DNA of 64,000 bases from Yuukianura sp. NJ FZ-2021. Its lineage: Eukaryota. Where the stretch lies: contig CM102283.1 of NCBI GenBank assembly GCA_046563655.1, forward strand, positions 9,052,001 through 9,116,000, written 5' to 3'. The notes under the pieces are model-generated. The model did not search any database and had not been told where the DNA came from. It worked only from the letters and a program-made list of their open reading frames with translations. Positions 5,061 to 38,478 of the stretch are shown in pieces. Numbering within the stretch: position 1 is the stretch's first letter; every line of letters starts with the position of its first letter. The translations under genes and the position numbers were made by a program.

Positions 5061-8000
5061 ATGTCATATTTCATGAACCAGTACACACGAGTAGAATTGA
5101 AGGCCGTGGATTTCTTCACGTCCCAATTGAACAAACCTTACAAGACGTAAGTTCTTTGAACTTTACTCATTTTTCGAAAAAAGCAATCAAAAAATTTAAG
5201 TTAGCGGCAAATTCGAGGTAAGATTAATTAGACAGAAGGTGTTGTTTTTTATACTTGGTTGAATCCGTGACACTTTACGAACAAAAGTTGAAAATGAAGG
5301 GAGTAACTATGTACTTTAAGTGTGCTTTGAAATCAGCACACGAGGTTAGTATTACGCACACAAGAGGTCAATGAACTCATTTAACCTCTACGCATATACA
5401 TAGACATTTTTGTGCCTTTCGCGCATGAGCAACTAGACACGTAGTCACTATACTGTCGAAAGTGCGTGACAAACCAAAAATTAGACACTGAGCATAAGCC
5501 ACTTGCATTGAAAGGGTAAAGAAATTTTTAGGCCTGATTTTTTTCAAAGCAAATCTAAGTTTTGGCCTCATTTTTTTGCAATTTGCAATTTGGTGCGTCA
5601 GTTGTAAGTTTTTAAGGCATCTGTTTAGTCTCAATTTAAGTATCCACAGTGAGGACAATGCTTGAGGTCAATGACCTCGTGTTGTGCAAGCGTAAGGGAA
5701 AGTGTTTTGGATAACTAATTTGTGCAAATTTTTGGCTGACGCCTTTACTTACTGCCAAAATGGGAAATCTATAAATTTCGTTCGTGCCAAATCATGTTTG
5801 TCCTTACTACTTACAAAAAAATACAAATTGCTGCTAATTTTATGAGATGAAACAACAACAAACATTGAAAAGAGCATAAAAACCTGCGCAGAACACAAGG
5901 CATTGTGTTTTTCATAAGCAATGAATAGAGTTGATACTCGAATTTGATCTTTAGCCAAATTCGTAACAAAGATTTGAAAATGAGGAATTGCAAAGTGTTT
6001 CACAATTTGTTTTGACGAAAATTTGCAAAAAGGAAAAGGAGTTACGTGACGCTTTTCAAGGCCGATTTGTTGATCAATTTTAATTTGGAATCAAAAACAT
6101 ATTTTAATGTGCATCAGCAGTACGTGCTAAAGAAAGATTTCAAATTTTGAACACTTCATCAACTTTTTATGTTTTTCGAAAAACTAGATTTTGTAACTGT
6201 AAGTTTTTTGCAGTGTGTGATCCTTGCATTTTTTGACGTAGAGTGACATGCCAGATCAAGATTTTGGTTTTTTCCATTTGTCAAAATTTTGGAAAACACG
6301 AACAATTTTTTGTTTTTGTAAAAAGTGGCCTTGCATGCAGCGCCCTAGAATTTCAAAAATTTATTCAAGGTCACGTGCTGCTCCATTTCTGCAACACTGA
6401 CATGCCATGTCACATCTTGTCACAAGGTGATTTGAGTCGTTGCCAAACTAAAAAATTTTAAAAAGCAAGGCTTAATTTTACAATTTCAAAATATTTAGAT
6501 ACGACGCTTAGCTTCTAATAACCTAACAACCTGACAAGAAGTGTCCAAAACTTGACCTAGCTTAAACTTATTTTTTTGAAAACCTTGATTTTCTAAAGTT
6601 TATGGGCTTTTAATTGTCAGTTCTGGAGTCGATTAAATCCAAAATTAGAAATGACATTCAAAATTTTATTTACGATGGAATAAAGTAGATTGACCTTGTG
6701 GAAGTGAGCCAATGTCGGCAAAATCATCATCTGAAACGAGTCACTATTAAAATGCAATTTGAGATCTTATGGCTTCACTTGCAAATAAATTTTTCGCAAA
6801 TTATTGCGAATCACGAATCAACAGACTGTGCACTGTGCATCAAAAATTGCAATTTTACGGCGGCGGTAAATTTTTAAAACTTGGAATTTTTTTTAATTCA
6901 AAGACCATAACCAGAGTCACTAAAAATTTGAAATCTTGGAATTTTTTGATATTGCAAAAAATTTAACTTTTTTTTTCTTTTTTGTAAAATTTTAGTTGCG
7001 ATTCTCGGAAGGATGACGGAAGTGACAATTCCTGTGAACTTACATTTACAAATCTCCGCACAAGTCCAGCACCCGGAAGTAACTTTATGCTTCAAGATGT
7101 TTCAGGGGAGGTCAAACCAGGAGAGATTTTGGCCGTTATGGGGTCAACAGGTAAAAATTTCAAAATTTTGAAAAACTTTTTACAAAATTTTTGGAATTTT
7201 GAAATTTAGGATGTGGAAAAACAAGCCTGTTGAACGCCTTGTCAGGCAGATTGCAAAGAGGGCGGCTGGAATCGGGCGAAATTCGGTTAAATGGAGAAAA
7301 GCTTTGCAAAAGGCTGCGAAGGACCAAAATCGGTTACGTGCTTCAGCATGACGTTTTCTTTGCAGATCTCACCCTTAGACAAACTCTTGTGGTAAAATCA
7401 AAAATTTTCAAAACACAGAAGGTTTTTTCAAAAAATTTCAAAATTTTGGTTTTGTGTAGTATACTGCTCTGTTGAGACTGCCGGATCACAAGTTCACAGA
7501 GCCAGAGAAGCTGGAGAAGGTGGATGAGATCATTGACCTTCTGGAACTTCGGAGATGTCAAGACACTAGTAAGTGGCGGCAAATTTGAAATTCTGAGTTT
7601 TCCGAGGTTTAGTCACCCCTTGCACGGATATCTGAAAATTAGTATGTAATTGTTAGTTTGAATTGGTTCTCGTTTAGTAATTGGTGACGTGATGAAGCGT
7701 GGGCTGAGTGGGGGAGAGAAGAAAAGGCTGAGCATCGCTTGTGAACTCATTACAAATCCTAGTGTTCTGCTAATTGACGTAAGACAATTTTCAAAATTTG
7801 AATTTCAAAAAACATTAGACTTTCAAAATTTTGCCAAAAAGGTGTTTATTGACCTTGGATAATAGACTTATTCCTCCTCCGGGCGGCGAAATTTTAAATT
7901 TGACCTTGAGATTTCAATCAAAAACTGAAAACTTGTTTCAAAAGTCGCTCAAAAGTGCAAGGTTAATGCCTAGACTCATTTTTCGACGTGGCAAACTCAA

Positions 8001-9748
8001 CTAACTATAGAAACATTTTCGTTCGAAATTTTGAAAAAAAATATTTTTTTTGGAAGGAACCAACCTCTGGACTGGATTCATGTACTGCTTCTCATCTCAT
8101 GTCAATGCTCAAAGATTATGCACAGAAGGAATCGAAGAGTGTGATACTGGCAGTACATCAACCATCTTCCAAAATATTCCATTTGTTCGATAGACTCCTA
8201 CTCCTCAGCGAAGGAAAAGTAAACCAAATTTACAAAAAGAAATAAAACTATTCACAGATTTCGAAATTTTGAACCATTTTTATTTGAATTTTCAGACGGC
8301 CTACTTCGGTGAAGCATCTCATGTGATTTCTCATTTTTCCACACTAGGATTAAATATTGCTCCGCACTACAATCCCGCTGATTTCGTTCGTAAGCTAAAC
8401 CAACCACATTTTAAAAATCTTTGTTTTGACTGAAATTTTTGTTTTGAAATTTTGAAAATAGTTGAGCAACTGAAGTCTTCTGCTACTCTCCTCACTGCCA
8501 GTTGGGACAAACATGTTTCAGCATTTGATTCAATTGAGATTAGCTCAGCGAAATCGGATCTGAGTCGCTTCAATTCCAATGAGCTCAGAACTTCAAGTTC
8601 AACCGACTCCTTAAGCGCTTCTTGGCCAACGTCGTTTTGGAGCCAAATTCGAGTTTTGGCGGCAAGAAATTTCAGGGAAGCTCGGCCACGCATGCTCTCC
8701 AAACTCAACTGGTTTCAAACTTTAGGATTAGCGATTATGGCGGGTTTCGTTTGGTTTCAAGTGAGAATCAACAAAAAACACTTTTCAAAAAAAAAAGTGA
8801 AAATGAAAAATAAAACTCAAGTTTTCGAAATTTTTGATTCAAAATTTTTAGACTCCGAGGAGAGAAGAATCGTTGATGGATTTGGACGGTTGGATGTTTT
8901 TTGCCTCAAATTATTGGATGCTGTTTGCCCTCTTTGGAGCTTTAGCATCTTGTAAGTACAAAAACTTGTAACTTTTTTTTTAAATTCCAAAATTTTTCAA
9001 AATTTTGAAACTTTGTTTTTGATTTATAGTTCCTGGAGAACGAGCTGTTGTAGAAAAAGAACGACTATCCGGAGCCTATCGTCTATCGTCGTACTACATT
9101 GCTAAAATGATAGGCGAAGCGCCATTGGTTATGGTTTTGCCCTCAGTTTACCTCATCGTCGCTTACCCGCTTTTGGGTGGCTCATTTTTATCGTTTTTTG
9201 GAGTTTTACTTATTCAAATTCTTTCATCTTTGGCGGCACAAAGTGCTGGACTATTTTTTGGAGCAGCCTTTGACCTCTCAGCTTCCATTACAGTCGCAGC
9301 TCTCTTCACTCTAGCGGCACAACTACTTGGAGGATACTTGGCCAACAATGTACTTTCAACTAAACTTCAATTTTTACAAAATTTTGAACTTTGATTTTGA
9401 AATTTTGAATTTTTTTATTTTTTGATCTTGTAGGTGCCAGCATACTTGAAAGCCTTTAGCCTAGTGTACCACGCGTCCAGAAACATGCAGATTTTTGAAT
9501 ACTCCTTTGGAGAACCCATACGATGTGCTGTGGAAGCATCTAAATTTTTAAGTTGTCATAGCAACCATACGATGCTGGAGGATACTGGTGACCCATTGAC
9601 TTTCACTGGCTACATTCCACGAAGTGAACTGCTGGCAATTGACCCCCTGGGGTCAGTACTTCCATTTTGGACACATTCGCTCTTCCTGGTAGCCTTCTTT
9701 TTCTTGTTCCGATTCCTGGGCTACTTTGCCTTGAGACGCTCCTTGTAA
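5061..9748 (+). CDS. E23: ABCG half-transporter, E23 (Early gene at 23)-like
   Basis: Exons 5061-5146 (candidate first), 6996-7150, 7210-7391, 7460-7568, 7678-7778, 8057-8218, 8296-8389, 8462-8760, 8852-8951, 9030-9349 and 9434-9748 splice in frame. Walker A GSTGCGKT, signature LSGGEKKR, Walker B LLIDEPTSGLD, HQP, NPADF, then a C-terminal membrane domain. The [19 protein letters not shown] segment is recalled as typical of E23; orthology is not tested. Confidence 0.85.
5365..5377. promoter_or_regulatory. IR1 EcRE (AGGTCA-a-TGAACT)
   Basis: Matches the RG(G/T)TCAnTGA(C/A)CY EcR/USP consensus. Confidence 0.55.
5665..5677. promoter_or_regulatory. Perfect IR1 EcRE (AGGTCA-a-TGACCT)
   Basis: Palindrome extends to GAGGTCAATGACCTC. 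Confidence 0.65.
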
Positions 9749-10694
9749 AATTTTTAAATTTTTCTAAAATTTTACGAAAATTTTTAAATTTTAACATTTT
9801 GAAGTGTTGTGATGTTTTTTAAACTTACGTTTCAAAAATACTACCCGCCACTTTCTTCCTTTGTACCACCGATTCTAAATTATTAACTTCCATAAAATTA
9901 GCAAGTTTTCATAATTCCTAAAGTAAAAAACAAAACGTTTTTGGCAGTGTGACAAACATAGGCGGTGAAGAAGCTAAACGTTTTTTTGTAGGTTTAAAAC
10001 GTTGTAATATTTTGAATTTTGGAATTTAGTTGTGTAAATTTTGAAAAATTTGTCAGTTACATGTTAAGTTAGTACAAGGTTAAAAAACTTCAGAAAAATT
10101 GAAATTAGAAGTGGAGTCTATGGTACCTGTACCTTTTGTATAAATTCTACTTTTCAAATTATATAAACTAAGTTTGAAATTTGTGTACTTTGTTGTAAAA
10201 GTGTTTTGAATAGGTCAAAAGGTCAACTATGGAATGTATTTTTCAAATTAGGTCAACAACGAATGTTCTAAGGCTCCTAACAAGACGATATTATTTCTCT
10301 AAGTTAAATATCAAATGCCTTTGTTAAATTCTGTTCTTTTGCATTTAAACTAATTATAATTAGCATGTACTAATATTAATTGCATTTATTAGCAACAAAA
10401 AATTAGGTTTTAGTTATTTAAAGTTTTCGTTTTCGTTTTAGAAAGTAGTAATGTTGAATAAAAACCATAAACTTTTTTCTTATGCTAAATCGCAAATCAG
10501 TTTAAATTTTTCTGTATGTTGCAATGAAAGTAATGCATCATCATCATCTCCAAGTGTAATTAGTTTCTTCGATTAACTAATTAATCGATTAACCGCCAAC
10601 TTGAAAACGGTATGGGCGTATGAGTATAATTGTTAGCGGCAGGACTCTACAATTCCAGTGTTGTTTCGAAGTTTTAGGTAGTTTGTCTCATAAC

Positions 10695-11357
10695 TTAATC
10701 CCCCCAGTCAATTTTGACGGTTGTGTCGATTAATGTGAATTTCGTGTCATCCGGGTCACATCTCTTCTTGGCCTCCAAAACCTCTTTGTATGGCGGATAT
10801 ATGTCAGCGTTTTTGTTCCTTGCAAAAGACCGGATTGCGATGTACTGTTGCCTGGACAGGGACAGATCTGATATGAGCTCCAAAGCTTCCTCTGCCGTAT
10901 ACTTTGAGCTGCCAGTTTTCTCGGAAGCAGTACTGCCAGTACTGCTTTCATCTGAGCCACTTGGGAGAATGTCCACCTGAAAAATAAGGAAACAATTGTC
11001 GTAATTTTTGGTATACTCAAAATCTTATTAGATTCTATTACAAGTTCGTACAAACCTAAGCCAAAAATATTAAAGAGTAGATAGCAGTACCTTAAATTCA
11101 TTGGATAGCCATCCCTCGTTTCTGGATTCGAATCTAGATTTATTCGAACGACAATCCCTCCATCGTTTACCAAAATTACCGTGTAGACTGGTGAGTCGGG
11201 ACAATGTGTTTGATAGTTTCCCTTCATCACATTCAGCTTCGTCAATTCCCAACTCCGACAAGATCCAAACCAATCCCTTTTTAGCATCCTCCTTGTTCTT
11301 CCCAGACGTAAATTGGGCACATATTTCACCGTTTGTGAACTTTCGTTCTGAAGCCAT
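10695..11357 (-). CDS. Two-exon 182-aa protein derived from a Transib/RAG1-like transposase N-terminal region, with no catalytic core
   Basis: Exons 11357-11091 and 10976-10695 are joined by a phase-0 GT-AG intron. FGKRW..RF..N..WL and EEALELI.DL.LSRQQY..IR...KNADIYPPY..V.EAKKRC resemble Transib transposase segments. Confidence 0.65.
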
Positions 11358-12230
11358 CGATTCCTTAAAAAAATATCAATCGTAAAATTGTAATATTTTC
11401 TTTGACCGTGTATCATGTTACTTACACTCCGATATGCAAAACGCTTCTGTTTCCGCTGAAGAAGGCCGAAAATCGTTGATTTTAGTATTTCGTAATAAGT
11501 AGTCCACTTCAGACGGTAGCTATGCCTTATATTCTTTTCGTGTGAAATATATTTGTAGAGTTCGGATTATGAAGGGTAGTAAGACATACCCTTATCCTAA
11601 TCACCCCTTGATTCTAGGTATGCCATTTGCGTGCTAAGCTAAACATGACCAAAAAAAAACACTATGCGCATCACTGAACTTCCAACTTCAATTTAGTATT
11701 CGGGTTGATGACGAAGAAAAACGACGCCAAGTTCCACATTGAAACCATTCGGTTTCTGAATTTGAAAATCCCTCGGAATTGGAAAGCGCGAAAACGAAAA
11801 CTCGCGAAAAACCTCCCTCCTCATTTTCTATGAATAGGCTCCGCCTTCTCTTCCCGTCTTTCGTCTTTCTTTCTTTTCAGAGTCAACCGGTAGTTGTTCG
11901 CTGTTCTTTTTTTGCGAATTCGGGTCAACCGTCGCTTCAAAGGTCAATCGGGTCAATTGGGGCTGTACTTGACAACTCGACGTCGACTTGCGGCTTAGAC
12001 AAGGTCATTCGGTAAGTTGCTTTCTGAATTCTGAGATACTACATTTTTCGATGGATCCGATAAACGATAAAGGAACAGAATGCGTATTGCAATGGACGAG
12101 TTTGTTGTCACAATTGAAGAACGATTTACCCCTGTTCTCTTCCTTTTTTCAGACTCGTAGAAGGAATATTTCTCATAAAGTCAGAATCTTCTTTTGGTTT
12201 GCTAGGAGTATAAATTGAACAGGTAGCAGA

Positions 12231-13854
12231 ATGACTGAGGAACTGGAACTGTCATCAGCTGAAGTAGAAGTTAAGCCGGAAGATACCAACGGAACATCAG
12301 TCTCGGTCTCTTCATCCGACGGTCCTGATAAGGCAACGACATCAACCGAATCAATGGAGGACGGTCTAGCGAAAGCGGCTTCAGCATTGTCCCAAGGCAA
12401 GCGAAGTCTCCTCATTAAGGACGTTCAACAGGCACTGTCCAGCTTGTCAGATGCTTGTAATCTGTACTCGCAACTTGTTGGATCCTTTGGAGCTCCAGAG
12501 GCACATTACTACTATGGAAAGGCTCTTCTAGGTTAGTTCTTAAGTATTTGACTTTACTAACAAGTTATGATGAGGATGATCGAATTCAAACATTGTTTAT
12601 AGAAAGTGCCCGATGTGAACTGTCAGTACTGCCAGCAGAAGCGGTTGAGAAGATCACAGAAACGAATGAAGGCGAGGACGACGACGAAGAAGAGGAAGAA
12701 GAAAGTGAAAAAGAAGAAGATGAAGAGGAGGAAGAAGATGACAAGAAAATGGAAGAGGATCTTAACGTTCCAAGTCCCACTCCCGCCGTAGCCAACGATG
12801 ACGCAACTCCCGGATCAAGCAGCGATACTCCACCGACAGTTTCAGAAGAGAAGCCAGCAGAAGGAATCGATGCATCCACTGATGCTGCCACAACTAAACT
12901 TGGGGAAGGTGGCGAAGAAGAACTGGAGCAATCCAGCTTGGAATTGGCTTGGGAAGTACTTGAAATTGCCAAAGTCTCTTACCAAAAAGAACTGGACGAC
13001 GTCAATGAAAAACTGAATGAAGTCCAGCAGAAGGAAGATGAGCCTTCAAAAGATGAGTCTGAAAAATTAGTCCAGAAAATCAAAGATTTGAAGCGGAAAC
13101 TAGCAGATACTCATCTTCTGCTGGGTGATGTTGCCACCGAGAGCGAATTTTATGAACAAGCCCAAGCAGAATTCCGTACATCTCTGACGATTCTGCGTGA
13201 TACGGAGAAGGAAGAGATCAGCCGTGAAATTGCTCAATGCTACTTTCAACTTGGTCTGGCGTATCACTTTGACAAGAAGTTTACCGAGTCAATCGAATGT
13301 TATGAAAAGGCCATCACTCTTATCAAAAACCGAATTGCTGAATTGCAGTCGCTGATTGACAAGAAACAAACCATGAAGGACTTGGGCAAAGAAACAAAGG
13401 ATCCGAATTACTCCGAAGCAGCAGAAATTACTGAACTGGAAGGAATCGTTAGAGATTTGGAAGATAAAGTGGCGGATACTATCGATGCTCAGAAGGATTC
13501 ACTCAGGACAAAGGAAGAAGAAAAAGTTGAACAAGAAATTATGGAACGAAACAGTCCCGTGAAGAATCCGAAACCATTGGCTGTCAACGACATTTCCCAT
13601 TTGGTAAAAAAGAAGAAGAAGTTGGATGAAGATGAGACTGAAAAGATGCAACCACCAGCTAAAAAGCAGTGTATGGATCCAGTAGTCGTCGATGCTTCCC
13701 ATGCTGAAGCTGATGCTGCTGCTGCTGTTTCTTCTACCAATGGAAATGGCAAGCATCATGATGAAAACGTAAGCATTCAAAACGACTTTTCATCGTTTCG
13801 AGCCCTTCTGAAGAAAGTCATGTTAATTTTTTTTGCTTTTGTTTTTTTTAGTGA
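12231..13854 (+). CDS. NASP: NASP/HGV2-like histone chaperone (SHNi-TPR, acidic)
   Basis: Exons 12231-12531, 12603-13768 and 13852-13854. Motifs YYYGKALL, acidic tract, LELAWEVLEIAK, LLLGDVATESEFYEQA, IAQCYFQLGLA and C-terminal DISHLVKKKKK. Confidence 0.9.
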
Positions 13855-14269
13855 ACCAACCTCTCTCAAAAGCGATTTCAAATCCAGCGTTCAGCAACCA
13901 ACAGTGTGTTGGTAACTTGGTTTTTGGGGGTTATTTTATACACCAAGTTTTTCCAGCTTATAATTTATCGTAATTTGTAAGTTTAGTCGAGCCACGGTCT
14001 GTTAATCTACTTAAACTTAATTAATTCCCAACTTACCCCGGCGAATTTTTCTCAACTTGTGACAACAAACTCTCCAGTGTTGTAATTGAATTCGATGTGA
14101 TTAATTCTGAGAGTAATTCGAATTTAAGGAATAAGTTAATTGGTCAAGTTACTCAATTTTTACAGTTGGAACTTTCATTTATAAGATTTTGCATAAATAA
14201 AATTCAGTTTCACATTCACCTGCTAAAGTCATTGCATATTGCTCAAACCGTACCGTAATTTTCCAGGAA

Positions 14270-21333: not shown

Positions 21334-21904
21334 TGAAACCCAAACCACTTGAGTTATTGTACCAAAATGTTACATCATCTCTAACTTAAAGGCAGATTTG
21401 ATAAGGTTGCTCAAAGGTCAAAGGCCAAAGACTCTTATGCCAGCCCAAAATTCGAAGTTTGTTATCATAATGTTTTGTGTTTTAGTGTAGCTTTTTGTGA
21501 TTATGCAGTCATTTCTAGCAGTTTCTTTCCAGTTCCACGTCACAGTTCTTAAAAATCAAATTATTTAGTAGTTTTCATAGTTTTAACGACTTCTCTTCTT
21601 CTAATTTTCTATAGCAAGTAATCAAACCTAAGTTCAACGACTATAAGAAAATCACGCCTGAATACACTATAAGTATTTACGATTGGTCATTCATAGAATA
21701 GCCAGATTTTGAGCAGCTATATTTTAAAAAACTATTTTTAAATCTACAGGTCAAAGTTACTATTTTGAGGAAAAGACAGCGCAAAAGGATTCCAGTCTCT
21801 CATTTTGGTAAGTTTCTTACATTTTTGAACCCGGAAATCAAAATCATCAACTGAGTCAAATTTTTCCACTGTTTTAGTACACTCAGAATCTTGTTCAAAG
21901 GATC

Positions 21905-22707
21905 ATGGCGCAGACTCCAAGTGTGGCCATGGTGGACGGAATGGATTACTGGGCTCAGCGCTGGAAAGAGCGCAAAACGGGATGGCACTTGTACAATGTC
22001 AACCCGACGCTGATTGAGTACTTGAATCGCTTAGCCGAACCAGGTCAATCTAAGAAGTTCTTCTTACCCCTCTGTGGCCAAACGTATGACATTGCCTATC
22101 TCCTTGGACTGGGACACTCCGTCTTTGGCGTTGAAGGGGTCAAAGAGGCCATTGCGCAACTCAACGAACGAGATAACCTTGGAATGGAGTTTAACCAACA
22201 AGATTCTGCGTTTAAGTCACCCGATGGAAGACTTGTGATTTACATTGGAGACATTTTGGAGTGTCCCGTTGAGAAGTGGGGTCCATTCGATGTCATCTTT
22301 GACCGAGCTTCACTCATAGCCATGAACTATGTCAATCGACAAGGCTACGTTGACGTTATCAAAAGAAGTGTCACAAAATCCCAAAATGAATGTAAGAAAA
22401 ACTCATTTTAGGCAGAATTTTTAACTAAACGTTCAAAAAGTAGTGCTAATCAAGTTGAAAAATTTAAATTTCAGACGCTGATTTCAAAATTCTACTGGAA
22501 GTGGTCAACTACGACAAATTGTTGCACGCTGGACCGCCGCGGGCTGTTGATGCTGATGACATGGCCAACTTGTTTGGTTCTTGGACAACTTCCGAAGTAC
22601 TCAATCAACAAGGGCCGACTGGAGTATTCCTGAGACTACAGTCATCGCTTCCTACTGGTAGTACTGTTGACGTTACACTTTACCTCTTAACTCCAAAACT
22701 ATTTTGA
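21905..22707 (+). CDS. Thiopurine S-methyltransferase-like protein, copy 1
   Basis: Exons 21905-22391 and 22475-22707. W.QRW..GWH..VNP.L, FLPLCG, GH.V.GVE, FD.IFDRASL.A and GPP. Confidence 0.85.
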
Positions 22708-22978: not shown

Positions 22979-23085
22979 CAACTTCGAACTCATGTTGCTA
23001 AGCGTCTCTCAGTTGAAGGACAGTTAAGGTCAAACATAGGTTATAAATATAAGTGAAGTACACGCAGAATCTTGTTGAAAGGATC

Positions 23086-23894
23086 ATGGCTCAGACTCCA
23101 AGTGTGGCAGGGATTGACATGGTGGACGGAATGGACTACTGGGCTCAGCGTTGGAAAGAGGGCAAAGCGGGATGGCAGTTGGACAGTGTCAACCCGACGC
23201 TGATTGAGTACTTGAATCGCTTAGCCGAACCAGGTCAATCGAAAAAGTTCTTCTTACCTCTCTGTGGCCAGACCCATGACATTGCCTATCTCATTGGACT
23301 GGGACACTCTGTCTTTGGCGTTGAAGGGGTCAAAGAGGCCATTGCGCAACTCAACGAACGAGATAACCTTGGAATGGAGTTTAACCAACAAGATTCTGCG
23401 TTTAAGTCACCCGATGGAAGACTTGTGATTTACATTGGAGACATTCTGGAGTGTCCCGTTGAGAAGTGGGGTCCATTCGATGTCATCTTTGACCGAGGTT
23501 CACTCTCTGCCATGAACTATGTCAATCGACAAGGCTACATTGAAGTTATCAAAAGAAGTATCAGAAAATCTCAAAATGAATGTAAGAAAAACTCATTTTA
23601 GGCAGGATTTTTAACTAAAAGTACAAAAAGTGCAAATCAAGTTGAAAAATTTAATTTTCAGACGCTGATTTCAAAATTTTACTGGAAGTGATCAACTACG
23701 ACAAATCTTTGTACGCTGGACCGCCGCGGGCTGTTGACGCTAATGACATGGCCAACATGTATGGTTCTTGGACAACTTCCGAAGTACTTAATCAACATGG
23801 ACCGACTGGAGTATTGTTGAAGCTACTCTCATCGCTTCCTACCGGCAGTATAGTTGAAGTTACTATTTACCTCTTGACTCCAAAACTACTTTGA
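23086..23894 (+). CDS. Thiopurine S-methyltransferase-like protein, copy 2 (tandem duplicate)
   Basis: Exons 23086-23581 and 23662-23894. Same intron position as copy 1 and long identical blocks; TATA-like sequence at about 23042. Confidence 0.85.
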
Positions 23895-30158: not shown

Positions 30159-30687
30159 ATGAAATTTAGTGTGGCATTATCTCTGGCCTTGTTGAGCTGC
30201 GTCAGCGTGGCACTGGCTCAGGGTAATTAAAAACTAACAATTAATTGAACGCACTTATTACTTTTATTTTTGAAAACCTGACATTATATTCTAATGTTCT
30301 TCAGAGTGGCGGAAAGCGGATTTGACAAATTACGAGTCGTATCCAGCCCCTGACAGCGAGGAATGTAGAGAGTACAATGGGTGCACATGGGCCGGGCAAT
30401 TTGCGTATGTCAGTGGCAAGAAACCCGAAAGTTGGGTCAAGGCCAACAACATCATTGCTATTCACTCTAAAGATGGACCGAAATACAAGTTGAAGACGTT
30501 TCGGTTACGTCAAAATGGCAAGACGATTGATGCCAAAGTGTACGACAACTGCAATGACGATGACTGCAATGGATGCTGTACCAAGAACGCCAAGAAAACT
30601 GGGTTTTTAATTGACATTGAAAAATACACCATGAAACGATTCGGATCAGGTGATGGAATTGTTGAATGGCAATGCCTGGATTGCTAA
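30159..30687 (+). CDS. Secreted cysteine-rich DPBB (RlpA/expansin-D1/barwin-like) protein, copy 1
   Basis: Signal-peptide exon, phase-1 intron, then WRKADLTNYESYP, IIAIH, GKTIDAKVYDNC..DC.GCC, FLIDIE and GIVEW; TATA and AATAAA present. Confidence 0.75.
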
Positions 30688-30866
30688 ATTGAACTAATCC
30701 ATGTTTAATACTTGGAATTAAATTGTAATTTGTAAAAGTATTAAATAAACGAACATTTAATTCGGCAGCAAACTACCATTATAAGCATGTGGTACTCTCT
30801 CTGGAACTTTACGGTAAAAACCCTTTGGAACTTTTTGTTCCCCACTCGGTCCGCACTCTGTTATAA

Positions 30867-31265
<399 letters not shown>

Positions 31266-31297
31266 ACATGACCATCTCATCAAAGCATTAAACCAAC

Positions 31298-31313
31298 GGC
31301 CCTTTTAAGGGCC
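31298..31313 (+). terminator. Histone 3' stem-loop GGCCCTTTTAAGGGCC with downstream AAAGAGC element (H4a)
   Basis: The same 16-mer follows all seven histone genes. Confidence 0.95.
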
Positions 31314-31880
31314 ACCACAATCTACAAAGAGCTAAATACGAAATTGTTCCGTTTTTGTGTTTTGAATTGAATTGAAAACAACTTGCTTAACTATGGAGTA
31401 TTCTAATTGTATGTGGCGTGACCTTTTCATTCACAAGGTCAACGAAGTGGTTGCTGCTGAGTCAGCAGTGCAGATTTCCTTTGAGCAACGTGAAGTTGAA
31501 TTTTATGGATGTATGACATTAATTCAAGCAATGATAGCATGTTAATAGTAGTTCCGATAATTTTTAAATGATATCGGCAATGATTTAATTAAAAATTTAA
31601 TTAATTTATAGTCAATCTTAATTGAGTTGGTGTGATACAGTGAATAAATTTTTGCAATTCAATTCATCATGTTTGTCCGTTGAACTTTTCCCGCGAGAAC
31701 TTCTCAGAATCTTTGTCCGTTGGAGTTCGTTTCCCGCCTTTTTGACTTTTGTTTGTCGAAAAAGAGGGGACGAGTTACTCCAAAAGAGTAAGATTCAGTC
31801 AAATCCTACTCCACCAAAACTCTATAAAAGCAGAAACTTCTCCCTTCCTCCCTTCATTCCGTTTCTGACGCCCGTTCTGA

Positions 31881-32333
<453 letters not shown>

Positions 32334-32363
32334 ATCTTCTCAACATCCAAATTATAAACCAAC

Positions 32364-32379
32364 GGCCCTTTTAAGGGCC
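32364..32379 (+). terminator. Histone 3' stem-loop (H3)
   Basis: GGCCCTTTTAAGGGCC followed by AAAGAGC. Confidence 0.95.
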
Positions 32380-32896
32380 ACCACATTTTACAAAGAGCTA
32401 AAAACAATTGATTTAGAAATATGTTGGGCCCTTGACCTTAATGTTCATGAACTACTGAATTTCTCTTACAGAATTTATTTTCTTCTGACTAAATCACTTC
32501 GTCTTCGATAAATTCGACATGACTTAAAATTTCAACAACCACACCCGCGAAAATTAAAATTTAGAAAAAATAAGCGTTGCGTTCATTTTAGACGAAAAAG
32601 TATTTAAAAAAAAACATTTTTCGAAAAAAAAGGGTTTCATGTCATAATCCATTTTAAGTTTTCGAAAAAACGAAAATAGAATTTCGAAAATAGAAATTCT
32701 GCCTCGGGGAGAAAAAAAAATTCCGACAAGGAGTAGAATTCAACTCCGTCAAGACTAAAACATTGTTAGCTTGCCGGTCCGCACTCCCCTTCAAATAGCA
32801 TCGTTCTCCCCAGTCTTCTCTTCATTCACAATCGAATTTTCGTTTTGATCATTCCAAACAAACTCGTCTCCCACTTTTACCAAACCTTCAGTTATC

Positions 32897-33685
32897 ATGG
32901 CAGAAGAAACAGCCACCGAAACCGCCCCTGCTGCTGCCCCACCAGCATCTCCAAAGAAGAAGGGTCGAGCAGCCGCTGCTCCGAAGCCCACCAAGGCCAA
33001 GGCTCCAGCAGCCGCCAAGCCACCACCGAAGCCAAAAGAACCAAAAGCCAAGGCTGAGAAGAAGGAAAAGGCTGCTCCAACCCACCCACCAACAGCATCC
33101 ATGGTCAAGGAAGCCATCAAGCGATTGGCGGAGCGAAATGGATCTTCACTGGCTGCCATCAAGAAGTCCATGGTGGAGACTCACAAGGTGGAGATTGACA
33201 AGATGGCTCCCTTCATCAAGAAGTACTTGAAGAAAGCAGTGGAGTCTGGTGAGTTGGTTCAGACCAAAGGTCACGGAGCTTCTGGGTCATTCAAACTTCC
33301 ATCCAAGGACAAAGCCAAGTCAGCCACCGGAGAGAAGAAGCCGAAAGCAGTGGCCAAAAAGCCAAAGGCCTCTCCAGTCAAGAAGGCAGCTTCTCCGAAG
33401 AAGTCTCCACCTAAGAAAGCGGTAGCCAAGAAACCTGCCCCACCAGCCAAGAAGGAAGCATCTCCACCAAAGTCTCCAGTGAAGGAAGCCCCAGCTGAGC
33501 CACCAAAGAAAGCTGCTGCTAAGAAGACCAAGGCCCCACCACCAGCACCAAAGTCTCCTGTCAAGAAATCTCCACCAGCCAAGAAGACAAAAGCTGCTGC
33601 CAAAATCAAACTCCCGCCGAAAGGAAAAGCAGCTGCTTCTCCGAAAACTTCACCTCCGAAAAAAGCTGCATCCAAAAAGAAGTAA
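32897..33685 (+). CDS. His1: Histone H1
   Basis: Globular domain THPP..MV.EAI..L.ERNGSSL.AIKK and LVQTKG.GASGSFKL; Lys/Ala/Pro tails with SPKK/SPVK motifs. Confidence 0.97.
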   Translation: MAEETATETAPAAAPPASPKKKGRAAAAPKPTKAKAPAAAKPPPKPKEPKAKAEKKEKAAPTHPPTASMVKEAIKRLAERNGSSLAAIKKSMVETHKVEIDKMAPFIKKYLKKAVESGELVQTKGHGASGSFKLPSKDKAKSATGEKKPKAVAKKPKASPVKKAASPKKSPPKKAVAKKPAPPAKKEASPPKSPVKEAPAEPPKKAAAKKTKAPPPAPKSPVKKSPPAKKTKAAAKIKLPPKGKAAASPKTSPPKKAASKKK

Positions 33686-33719
33686 AATCAACAACTCCAA
33701 TCCAATGAATTAAACCAAA

Positions 33720-33735
33720 GGCCCTTTTAAGGGCC
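33720..33735 (+). terminator. Histone 3' stem-loop (H1)
   Basis: GGCCCTTTTAAGGGCC followed by AAAGAGC. Confidence 0.95.
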
Positions 33736-34077
33736 ACCAAAATTTACAAAGAGCAAAAATTACATGAAATACTTTAGAAGTTTCTGATTTAACAAAATTT
33801 CGGGACATGAGAAGTGACACTTTAAAACTGCAATCACCACTAAAAGTCTTTTCTAACGATTGATTCAATTTCTTTTGTATCGTGTTTTTCTAGTATATGA
33901 GCCAATCCGACACGTTAATTGATATTTACTCTAAAATTAATTCAATCTTGATTGATTTAATATCTGATTTGCTAAAAAGATCAATATTAATTAATTTTGT
34001 ATAGAGTTGGTAACAAAAAGTAAAGAACCGTTAGTTTTTGCATTGGCGGGAATTTTGTAAGTTCTTTCTTTCGTTGA

Positions 34078-34581
<504 letters not shown>

Positions 34582-34616
34582 ACATGACCATCTCATCAAC
34601 AAAGCATTAAACCAAC

Positions 34617-34632
34617 GGCCCTTTTAAGGGCC
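34617..34632 (+). terminator. Histone 3' stem-loop (H4b)
   Basis: GGCCCTTTTAAGGGCC followed by AAAGAGC. Confidence 0.95.
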
Positions 34633-35048
34633 ACCACAATTTACAAAGAGCTAAATACGTTTATGTAAAAAGTTGAAAACAACTTCTGAGAAATTCCATA
34701 AGCATCCCTTTCTAAACCAATCAGGAAGATCCACATCGCATTGGTGAAAACTATTTTCAACGGGTTGATGTATTGACATTTGACTTTGTTCAAACACACG
34801 GATACCACAGGTTTCCGGGAAATGTAATAATTTACCAACATTTCGTGGTAATCGCTATTTATTTTTTACAATTGACAATAATTTATTATTTTATTAGGAC
34901 AAGGAAAGAATAGCCAATAAATTCAAAAGCTGAACATGTCAAAGTTCTATCACAAAACCTGTGTGAATTGTCTATAAAAACGGTTGAAATTGCAACTTTA
35001 TTGAGACATTCATTTCCAGTTTTTTGAAACTTTTTCATACAATTCATA

Positions 35049-35587
35049 ATGAAATTTAGCGTGGAAGTAGCATTATATTTGACCTTGCTGGGTTGCATCA
35101 GCGTTTCACTGGCTCAGAGTAATTAAAAGATACAATTAATTATTGTTTTATCACTCATTACTTTTTTTGAAAATCTAACGTTGCATTATATTTTTCAGAG
35201 TCGGGTTGGCGGAAAGCGGATTTGACAAATTTCGAGTCGTATCCAGCTCCTAATAGCGAAGAATGTAAAAAGTACAATGGGTGCAAATGGGCCGGGTATT
35301 TTGCGTATGTCAGTGGCAAGAAACCCGAAAGTTGGGTCAAGGCCAACAACATCATTGCTATTCATTCTAAAGATGGAGAGAAATACAAGTTGAAGAAATT
35401 TCAGTTACGTCAAAATGGCAAAACGATTGATGTCACCGTTTACGACAAATGTTCTGACAGTGACTGCAATGGATGCTGCACCAAGAATTCCAAGAAAACA
35501 GGATTTCTAATTGACATTGAAAAATACACTATGCAACGATTTGGATCAGGTTCTGGAGTTGTTGAATGGAGATGCATGAACTGCTAA
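35049..35587 (+). CDS. Secreted cysteine-rich DPBB-like protein, copy 2
   Basis: Paralog of 30159-30687 with the same intron, conserved cysteines and IDIE motif. Confidence 0.75.
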
Positions 35588-35879
35588 TTATACAAATCCA
35601 TGTTCTTGTATAATACAGACACAGTTTTAATTATTCATAATATTAGAAAACAACATTAAAATCAGAATACGGCACAGATATAATTTAATACAGTACCTTC
35701 GCAAATAATGTCCCGTCCCTCTAGTACTCTTCTGTGAACGCCACTAGACAATGAGCACCATCACAACTATTAGGAATTCTACGGTAAAAATAGTTTGGAG
35801 TTTTTTTTGTTGCGCTCTCGGTCCGCACTTCCTTACAAAAGGACTTCTCTATTGGTTAGGTTTCTCAATCCCATTTTGA

Positions 35880-36236
<357 letters not shown>

Positions 36237-36272
36237 ACTAACATGACCTTCTCATCAAAGCATTAAACCAAC

Positions 36273-36288
36273 GGCCCTTTTAAGGGCC
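36273..36288 (+). terminator. Histone 3' stem-loop (H4c)
   Basis: GGCCCTTTTAAGGGCC followed by AAAGAGC. Confidence 0.95.
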
Positions 36289-36788
36289 ACCACAATATAC
36301 AAAGAGCTAAAAAATCAATACTTGACACGAATTGAGGTTGCACACTGCAATTTTATAAAAATATAAATGAAATGTATGTTTTACAGTTGGTTTCTAACAG
36401 AAAACCATATGCTGAGGTCAAAGGGCATGCTCTAGGACACTTCGTTCAAGTTAGAATATAAAAAAAATTACAATCATCCGCCTCATTTTGTCTGTTTCTA
36501 CTACATAAACACAAACAATCGCTGATGCACTCTATTCCGCTAATAGAATAAGTTAAATTAGTAATTCTTAAATATAATTAAATTACATTAAGTTTCAATA
36601 AATTTAATAGTTTACGAATTATGAAATAAATTATGTGTCATGCATGTCTAGCCTGCATTCATAAAAAAATGAACAAAAAAAGCCGATGCTGCTCCCTTTC
36701 ACGTCCGCACCAGCTTCTACCCCACTCGAGGAGTTAGAAGTTACTCTTTCACAGTGAAATTCTACTCCACAGAGAGGGTATAAAATGA

Positions 36789-37247
<459 letters not shown>

Positions 37248-37278
37248 ACTCATCAACCATCAAAGAACTTAAACCAAC

Positions 37279-37294
37279 GGCCCTTTTAAGGGCC
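37279..37294 (+). terminator. Histone 3' stem-loop (H2A)
   Basis: GGCCCTTTTAAGGGCC followed by AAAGAGC. Confidence 0.95.
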
Positions 37295-37642
37295 ACCACA
37301 TTTTACAAAGAGCAAAACTTGATATGAAAATGCTTTGGCATTAGGGCCACTTGGCGTAGTTAATTCTGAAGTCGGAAACTTCGAATGGCCATGAACGCTT
37401 ATAACCCGGTTCCTCTTATTCAATAAAATTGGTGTACTACATCATAAAATAACACTTTCAATGTTTAGTTTTTGCAAAAATATCATTTGAGAAGACATAC
37501 ACTTTTAAGGAAGCGTCGCAACACCAGAAAAAAAAATTTGCATGAATACTCGTTTCATAAAAAGACGCCAATGCAATGTCATGTTGGCAGTTGAACAAAA
37601 AAGCGGTTTTTCTTTTTCCATTTCGCGCCATTTTGCAACTGA

Positions 37643-37873
37643 CAAAAGTGGAAAAGGGAGAGTTGGAGTTGGGATGGTCCCTCCATGCATTTTTGCCATT
37701 GCCACCTCATCTCTTTCTGCACCCTCCAACTCCAAAAGAGTAAAACTTTGTCGAATTCTACTCCTCTGCCAAAGTGGAAAGGGAGAGTTGGAGGGAGGTG
37801 GCAATGGTTTAAACACACAGAGGGACCATCCCAACTCCAAAAGAGTAAAACTTTGTCAAATCTTACTCCTCTG
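37643..37873. repeat. Tandem duplication in the H2B promoter with the internal segment inverted between the copies
   Basis: Units 37643-37768 and 37769-37873 share flanks while their cores are reverse complements. Confidence 0.85.
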
Positions 37874-37967
37874 GCTTTGATATAAAAGGGGAGACAAAAC
37901 CAGAATCCACTCATTCACTCGACAACAGTCTCTGAATTCTCTCCTCTCTCTCGACAACCAAAGCAAG

Positions 37968-38342
37968 ATGCCACCAAAGGTCAGCGGAAAAGCAGCGAAG
38001 AAGGCAGGGAAGGCGCAGAAGAACATCTCGAAGGGGGACAAGAAGAAAAAGAAGATGAAGAGGAAGGAGTCCTACGCCATCTACATCTACAAGGTCCTCA
38101 AGCAAGTTCATCCGGACACTGGCGTCTCCTCCAAGGCCATGTCAATCATGAACTCCTTCGTCAACGACATCTTCGAACGGATTGCTGCTGAGGCCTCTCG
38201 ACTGTCCCACTACAACAAGCGGACCACCATCACTTCCCGCGAGATTCAAACTGCTGTTCGTCTTTTGCTCCCCGGAGAATTGGCCAAACACGCAGTCTCT
38301 GAAGGAACCAAGGCTGTCACCAAGTACACTTCATCCAAATAA
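37968..38342 (+). CDS. His2B: Histone H2B
   Basis: MPPK start, [21 protein letters not shown] and AVTKYTSSK. Confidence 0.99.
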
Positions 38343-38370
38343 TTCCAACATCACAGCATCCTAAACCAAC

Positions 38371-38386
38371 GGCCCTTTTAAGGGCC
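38371..38386 (+). terminator. Histone 3' stem-loop (H2B)
   Basis: GGCCCTTTTAAGGGCC followed by AAAGAGC. Confidence 0.95.
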
Positions 38387-38478
38387 ACCACAATATACAA
38401 AGAGCAAAAATTTATTGGTGAAGATGATAACATAGAGTTCGAAATTTGTTTCGGAATTGTTCAGTTTGCGTTGAGATT

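Follow-up and report, generated by a model that had tools for sequence, protein, structure and literature searches.

We analysed a stretch of 64,000 nucleotides (nt) from Yuukianura sp. NJ FZ-2021 (assembly GCA_046563655.1, contig CM102283.1, positions 9,052,001 to 9,116,000 of the forward strand; hereafter the window, whose own numbering is used throughout), focusing on a two-exon open frame of 182 amino acids (aa) on its minus strand (11357-10695) that lies head-to-head with NASP. Judged from sequence comparison, this gene encodes a truncated, transposase-derived, non-catalytic protein whose functional standing is unproven: its first exon holds the N-terminal helical domain, and its second the dimerisation and DNA-binding domain (DDBD), of a Transib transposase. 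The core of RAG1, which serves vertebrate V(D)J recombination, arose from the Transib superfamily of transposons. The reading that we favour, with a probability of about 45%, is that the product is a maintained non-catalytic protein, which would act either as an inhibitor of Transib transposition resembling the KP protein of P elements or as a co-opted factor. The label "domesticated", for which the initial annotation had proposed the locus as a candidate, is not established, and a co-opted protein, a dominant-negative repressor and a deletion derivative are all possible.

Comparison of the two exons with Transib transposases

Exon 2 was compared with all PDB chains by phmmer and matched the Helicoverpa zea Transib transposase (HzTransib; 6pqn) at E 6.1e-6, residues 23-89 of the exon aligning with residues 5-72 of the chain. 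When 1.84 billion cluster representatives were scanned in full with HMMER, 455 proteins reached E <= 1e-3; the best of them was 51% identical to the exon (E 1.7e-13), and the hits included neither the protein itself nor an orthologue. Pfam annotation of seven of the hits (681-753 aa) gave a weak match to RAG1 (PF12940) in four, one of them above the cut-off, and nothing in the other three. A family profile of 661 positions was built from 24 full-length relatives of 485-753 aa. This profile matched HzTransib (4e-190), the amphioxus protein RAG1L (4e-14) and vertebrate RAG1 (5e-13 to 1e-7), with the GRP motif of the relatives aligned to the GRPR motif of RAG1, and exon 2 matched it at positions 162-240 with 79.1 bits.

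The modelled fold of exon 2 points in the same direction. In the AlphaFold2 model, the predicted local distance difference test score (pLDDT) was 96-98 across three helices and 51-53 in the Ser/Thr-rich linker that precedes them. Model residues 24-74 superposed on HzTransib residues 21-74 with Z 9.3 and a root-mean-square deviation (rmsd) of 1.5 Å over 53 residues (40% identity), and on mouse RAG1 residues 460-511 with Z 8.8 and an rmsd of 0.9 Å over 51 residues (20% identity). Among the superpositions listed, ranks 1-22 were all Transib, RAG1 or RAG1L chains, and the first unrelated chain appeared at rank 23 with Z 2.3. The sequence matches, the family profile and these superpositions bear out the Transib/RAG1 origin that the initial annotation had proposed, and exon 2 is Transib-derived. 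The conserved motif quoted in that annotation likewise reflects genuine homology rather than a chance likeness. Residues 459-515 of mouse RAG1 are described as the DDBD (PMC13056857), and because the exon 2 model superposes on residues 460-511, inside this interval, the quoted motif corresponds to the DDBD. The motif had been placed just before the RNase H core; its assignment to a Transib/RAG1 segment stands, but its position does not, the DDBD lying two domains upstream of RNase H with PreR in between.

The homology ends about five codons short of the stop codon. Alignments that continued past the stop in tblastn had weak, scattered identities and crossed two further stops, and were not accepted. 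Exon 2 also showed a weak likeness to Pfam DUF1280 (PF06918; E 0.0065, 16.5 bits), which is below the 25-bit gathering cut-off, and by this Pfam criterion the gene is not a member of that family. A weak match to DUF1280 was also seen in one relative (P0003; E 0.0017), and in one ESM Atlas cluster near exon 2 the domain was assigned to 11% of the members; these matches suggest that DUF1280 could have originated from the DDBD/PreR part of Transib transposases. The ESM Atlas results for exon 2 consisted of unnamed arthropod and mollusc fragment clusters only.

Exon 1, which the initial annotation had left unassigned, corresponds by sequence to the N-terminal helical domain of longer Transib transposases and is Transib-derived as well. 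It aligned with the first ~85 residues of long relatives, up to a near-invariant W-L..F motif, and was 33% identical to relative P0042 over the N-terminal domain. The match to the family profile, at positions 4-84, reached 17.2 bits. Against a profile built without exon 1 it scored 39.8 bits, higher than all 20 of the relatives outside the training set that carry the domain (10.3-38.2 bits). The AlphaFold2 model of exon 1 was all helical (pLDDT 90.5) and resembled no solved fold, with a best E of 1.5 in Foldseek and a best Z of 5.4 in a wide VIA structure search. Matches to winged-helix, TetR and SETMAR DNA-binding domains at Z 4-5 were rejected as being within the noise for helical models, and the ESM Atlas gave no usable match for this exon.

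N-terminal helical domains that are absent from HzTransib and Transib1 have been described in some Transib lineages, their function being untested there (10.64898/2026.08.26.747230). The long transposases of this kind (Nozomi-type in the 2026 preprint; P0038, P0042 and P0148 among our relatives) are alike to exon 1 over their first ~85 residues, including the near-invariant W-L. HzTransib belongs to the same superfamily as our relatives and resembles the window gene in the DDBD of exon 2, but it has no N-terminal helical domain of the exon 1 type, the profile match to its chain starting only at profile position 174. It is moreover a complete enzyme with PreR, an RNase H DDE core, zinc domains and a C-terminal domain, all of which the window gene lacks.

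Absent regions, transposon ends and gene structure

To delimit what has been kept, the six-frame translation of 9400-12300 was compared with the 661-position profile, which matched the locus at positions 4-84 and 162-240 only. No frame of this interval matched positions 85-161, which cover the GRP motif, a basic stretch and a helical region, all three making up the counterpart of the nonamer-binding domain, or positions 241-661, which cover the rest of PreR, the RNase H/DDE core, the zinc regions and the C-terminal domain. Occupancy of positions 95-150 was zero in both exons. The initial annotation had called the GRP/nonamer-binding region and the DDE core missing, and both are indeed missing, with no profile match here. 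Searches of the window by tblastn with 152 proteins revealed no other Transib-like locus or core, the alignments elsewhere at E < 0.05 being seven stray ones with a best E of 0.006.

The combination of domains is unusual among relatives, of which 150 of the 455 matches were examined for architecture. None of the 49 relatives with the N-terminal domain lacked the nonamer-binding zone, so the architecture of the window gene is not a common variant; all 49 of these long proteins continue through the GRP/nonamer-binding-like region and many run on into the core, whereas the window gene skips the region and has no core. In relatives, a linker rich in Ser, Thr and Pro directly precedes GRP, and the Ser-rich stretch of exon 2 is for this reason most simply explained as the family's own linker. 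It would thus have been retained after an in-frame deletion of ~65 codons. The initial annotation had described a Ser-rich linker that replaces the GRP/nonamer-binding region; the loss of the region is confirmed, but a replacement seems not to have taken place.

The ends of the profile matches carry information on exon structure in the family. The match begins at positions 90-99 in 18 of the 150 relatives, which fits an ancestral intron at this point, and the intron of the window gene was probably inherited from the transposon. In 7 of the 150 the match ends at positions 240-243, the same place as the 3' end of the homology here, and N-terminal-only open frames that end before the core were found in 14 of the 150. 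Across relatives P0003-P0152, starts cluster at 90-99 and ends at 234-243 and at 251, which suggests conserved intron positions flanking a nonamer-binding/DDBD exon in this Transib lineage. Some tblastn alignments crossed the intron of the window gene, but the family profile does not match there, and we rejected as unsupported the idea that its 3' part is decayed coding sequence.

Transposon ends were sought around the gene. The initial annotation had noted no convincing terminal inverted repeats, and we likewise found no inverted-repeat pair bracketing the gene, a repeat search of 8000-14000 giving AT-rich chance pairs only. No CACWRTG heptamer, nor the relaxed form CACNNTG, occurred in the required orientation within ~0.9 kb upstream or ~1.3 kb downstream. 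The sole CACWRTG in 9000-12600, a CACTATG after an A-run in the NASP-side intergenic region (11660-11666, plus strand), points away from the gene and was rejected as a terminus; the 23 CACWRTG heptamers in the whole window correspond to chance frequency. The gene lacks the nonamer-binding region, the core and the terminal inverted repeats, starting with CACWRTG and accompanied by 5-bp target duplications, that mark an autonomous element, and it is no functional Transib transposase.

These observations bear on one alternative, namely that the locus is not a fixed host gene but one of multiple copies of a non-autonomous Transib element with an internal deletion, which itself encodes the short, KP-like protein. 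Internal deletions during transposon repair make such derivatives in one step, KP is encoded in just this way (PMC7776569), and the preserved open frame would fit recent activity. Since neither an oriented terminal heptamer nor an inverted-repeat pair is present, this copy is not mobilisable, and the tblastn searches with the 152 proteins found no second copy in the window. We consider this explanation improbable.

The features that the initial annotation had listed for the gene (a 182-aa two-exon open frame, a phase-0 intron, a candidate intron in the 5' untranslated region (UTR) and an AATAAA) are all present on the minus strand. The start codon is the ATG at 11357-11355. Exon 1 (11357-11091, 89 codons), which ends in the conserved W-L..E-F motif of the N-terminal helical domain, is followed by a phase-0 GT-AG intron of 114 nt (11090-10977; GTACTG...TTTTTCAG; GC 0.28), whose 3' end consists of a long pyrimidine tract and then CAG. 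Exon 2 (10976-10698, 93 codons) comprises linker, DDBD and tail, and the stop codon TAA at 10697-10695 closes a product of 182 aa (89 + 93). Within exon 2, the Ser/Thr-rich linker (residues 1-23, 10976-10908) occupies the place of the GRP motif and nonamer-binding-like region of the relatives, and the DDBD-like three-helix domain, assigned by homology and modelled fold, spans residues 24-74 (10907-10755). The C-terminal tail (residues 75-93, with the TAA at 10754-10695) holds the first residues of the PreR equivalent, the profile match stopping at position 240. Two further elements are candidates from their sequence: a 62-nt 5'UTR intron (11425-11364, minus strand, GTAAGT...TTTAAG), which ends 6 nt before the ATG, and a polyadenylation signal AATAAA (10390-10385, minus strand), 305 nt past the stop, which in such AT-rich DNA may be a chance match.

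As the initial annotation had indicated, the frame is open: in-frame stops were absent from the 182 exon codons, but occurred in 3 of the 38 intron codons and 11 times in the ~130 codons past the terminator, and all three in-frame stops between the ATG and the terminator are confined to the 114-nt intron. The exons, with a GC content of 0.42 and 0.48, are comparable to host exons elsewhere in the window (0.40-0.53), whereas the intron (0.28) and the flanks (0.28-0.36) have lower values. A second stop-free frame of 278 codons, at +1 relative to the gene (minus strand, 10730-11566), spans the 5' region, exon 1, the intron and most of exon 2. It is unexpectedly long for such AT-rich DNA and may be due to chance; against Pfam it gave a sub-threshold, chance-level match to Prok-E2_E (E 0.02, 15.1 bits, cut-off 25).

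The SHNi-TPR motif of NASP was recognised (34.2 bits, cut-off 21) in the plus-strand neighbour, which starts with an ATG at 12231, so that the head-to-head arrangement with NASP proposed in the initial annotation is real; 873 nt separate the two start codons. The divergent intergenic region common to both genes (11426-12230, no strand) is presumed to be a promoter region. An intron of NASP measures ~70 nt, close in size to the 62-nt candidate 5'UTR intron, and short introns are therefore normal at this locus. Exons of an ABC-2-type transporter lie on the plus strand downstream of the gene, which, given the positions and strands of its neighbours, occupies a 2.5-kb gap in divergent orientation to NASP and in convergent orientation to the transporter.

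The 182-aa model would be incomplete if the two exons belonged to a longer host transcript. Such a transcript could be a transposase-capture fusion that includes additional exons, or the locus could supply a neighbouring gene with an alternative first exon. Host genes are known to acquire DNA-binding or dimerisation domains of transposases through splicing, and relative P0099 is predicted to join the same domain to an unrelated tail. At the locus itself, the TAA ends the frame inside exon 2 with no usable donor before it, an in-frame stop lies six codons upstream of the ATG, a spliced 5' extension has no in-frame ATG, and the 950 nt downstream are AT-rich, filled with stops and devoid of any family match. 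This makes an incomplete model highly improbable. P0099 itself (222 aa, from another genome) consists of a Transib DDBD segment followed by 131 unrelated residues with a GHTHH motif, which we take to be metallophosphoesterase-like; it may be a gene fusion or a prediction artefact.

Elsewhere, the window contains a histone cluster (30800-38400) with three H4 genes, H3, H1, H2A and H2B. Two Cys-rich open frames, paralogues of each other, are interspersed with this cluster on the plus strand (30295-30687 and 35171-35587). Two near-identical tandem open frames of ~180 codons, also on the plus strand (21878-22411 and 23053-23601), indicate a recent tandem duplication.

Proposed action of the protein

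We propose that a Transib transposase gene was cut down to a 182-aa non-catalytic protein made up of an N-terminal helical domain, a Ser-rich linker that is predicted to be disordered and the DDBD. The gene would be transcribed from the region common to it and NASP, spliced at the GT-AG intron, and its protein presumably kept by selection. Because no catalytic residues are encoded, the protein is unable to cleave DNA. In RAG1 and HzTransib, the DDBD forms the subunit interface and makes contacts to DNA, and in RAG1 it makes up part of the DNA-binding surface; to our knowledge, such DNA contacts are known for RAG1 and Transib only. The retained module is a homologue of this dimerisation domain, and its self-association or binding to transposase is a prediction. 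Its most likely action would be through the DDBD, by pairing or competing with full-length Transib transposase subunits so that transposition is blocked, as KP does in P elements. Alternatively, the host may have recruited both modules for a function of its own, as a dimerising adaptor or a DNA-binding factor.

The closest precedents for repression by a truncated transposase come from P elements. KP (207 aa), which derives from an internally deleted P element, dimerises and represses transposition, and a 66-kDa P-element protein made by intron retention is likewise a truncated transposase that represses transposition (PMC7776569). The window gene resembles both in encoding a short protein of similar size that is composed of non-catalytic N-terminal modules of a DDE-type transposase and lacks the catalytic part. 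The frame of the 66-kDa form runs into an intron and ends there, and the window frame likewise ends a few codons beyond the point at which the open frames of several relatives stop. KP belongs to another superfamily and keeps a proven THAP DNA-binding domain, and its elements retain their terminal repeats; in the window gene, by contrast, the end-binding module is deleted, no DNA-binding fold was recognised in exon 1 and terminal repeats are absent, and repression is a proposal. By analogy with KP, both poisoning through heterodimers and competition for transposon ends could be envisaged, and with the end-binding module gone and no recognisable DNA-binding fold in exon 1, poisoning through heterodimers would be the more plausible of the two.

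Mouse RAG1 offers the other point of comparison. It contains the same three-helix DDBD unit, and the order of a GRP/nonamer-binding region followed by the DDBD is shared with the Transib relatives. The DDBD of RAG1, however, sits within a 600-residue core, whereas that of the window gene stands without nonamer-binding domain, core or C-terminal domain. No RAG2-like partner turned up in our searches, none of which was aimed at RAG2.

Maintained gene or transposon remnant

The reading of a maintained non-catalytic protein draws on the state of the exons. Over the DDBD block, the window gene scored 84.9 bits against a median of 85.2 for full-length relatives, with 36 of 126 non-training relatives scoring higher, a comparison that is biased because these relatives were chosen by similarity to the same window sequence. 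By their profile scores, both retained domains are undecayed and similar to those of intact members, which is the one indirect sign of purifying selection. The disruptions all lie outside the exons, the internal deletion is in frame, and the transposon ends and the core are gone. An intact open frame together with lost transposon ends is one trait expected of a co-opted transposase gene, and this combination is what we observed.

The principal alternative is a dead relic: a Transib copy would have inserted between the ABC-transporter gene and NASP, and deletions would have taken away the nonamer-binding region, the 3' two-thirds and the two ends. The remaining 546 coding bases would be open only because stops and frameshifts have not had time to appear, and no protein of consequence would be made. 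Such a course of events is quite possible, although we place it short of an even chance. In animal genomes, fragments of transposases are mostly relics, one deletion in three is expected to preserve the frame, and a homology that stops ~5 codons before the stop codon is what would be expected from a deletion that joined coding to unrelated DNA. The donor site is inheritable, and the 18 relatives whose match starts just past the N-terminal domain fit an ancestral intron; the 14 N-terminal-only frames imply that such pieces are common in sequence collections. On the other hand, a relic must have suffered three separate large losses (of the internal region, of the 3' part with its end and of the 5' end) while its 182 codons acquired neither a stop nor a frameshift, and both retained domains score like those of intact members. 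In composition and stop density, the DNA that separates and follows the exons matches the background, and the strong acceptor, with its long pyrimidine tract and CAG, restores the frame exactly.

Several observations weigh against a maintained protein. A young fragment would likewise show a 546-nt open frame with intact motifs, and the GT donor, and possibly the acceptor, may simply come from the transposon. The 3' end of the homology coincides with the point at which the open frames of several relatives break (7 of 150), and N-terminal-only open frames exist among them (14 of 150). The closest relative is just 51% identical, and no close relative was found by word-index protein searches with exon 1 and exon 2 or by two metagenome-contig scans. 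These blanks are uninformative, as the proteome of the species is probably absent from the library: the window's own histone H1 was missing, too, from the 15-billion-protein collection. Two further points concern the proposed action. In mouse RAG1 it is the C-terminal domain that, with its last helix, completes the DDBD fold (PMC13056857), and since that domain is missing here, autonomous folding and dimerisation are not assured. Competition for transposon ends, finally, is unsupported, as the nonamer-binding region is deleted and exon 1 has no recognised DNA-binding fold.

A more specific version of the favoured reading is that the locus is a fixed single-copy host gene under purifying selection, reduced to the N-terminal domain and the DDBD and expressed from the promoter region common to it and NASP. 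As a co-opted gene derived from Transib it would be the first outside the RAG1 lineage, and its product would be a heritable inhibitor of Transib transposases that forms dead heterodimers, or would act as a new dimeric chromatin- or DNA-binding factor. We judge this full version unlikely. The literature that we searched contained no report of a Transib-derived host gene other than RAG1, nor of a truncated Transib transposition repressor. Transib relics and RAG1-like genes are discussed by Kapitonov and Jurka (2005; PMC1131882), in whose passages on them no such truncated gene appears.

The window alone cannot tell a gene in use from a well-preserved fragment. If the locus is a relic, it is an ordinary transposon fragment with annotation value only, and transcript support would be needed before it is annotated as a protein-coding host gene. 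If the gene is expressed and conserved, it would show that non-catalytic modules can persist without the rest of a RAG-like transposase. It would then provide a natural minimal construct for the role of the N-terminal helical domain of long Transib transposases, and one with which to ask whether an isolated DDBD poisons a RAG-like transpososome.

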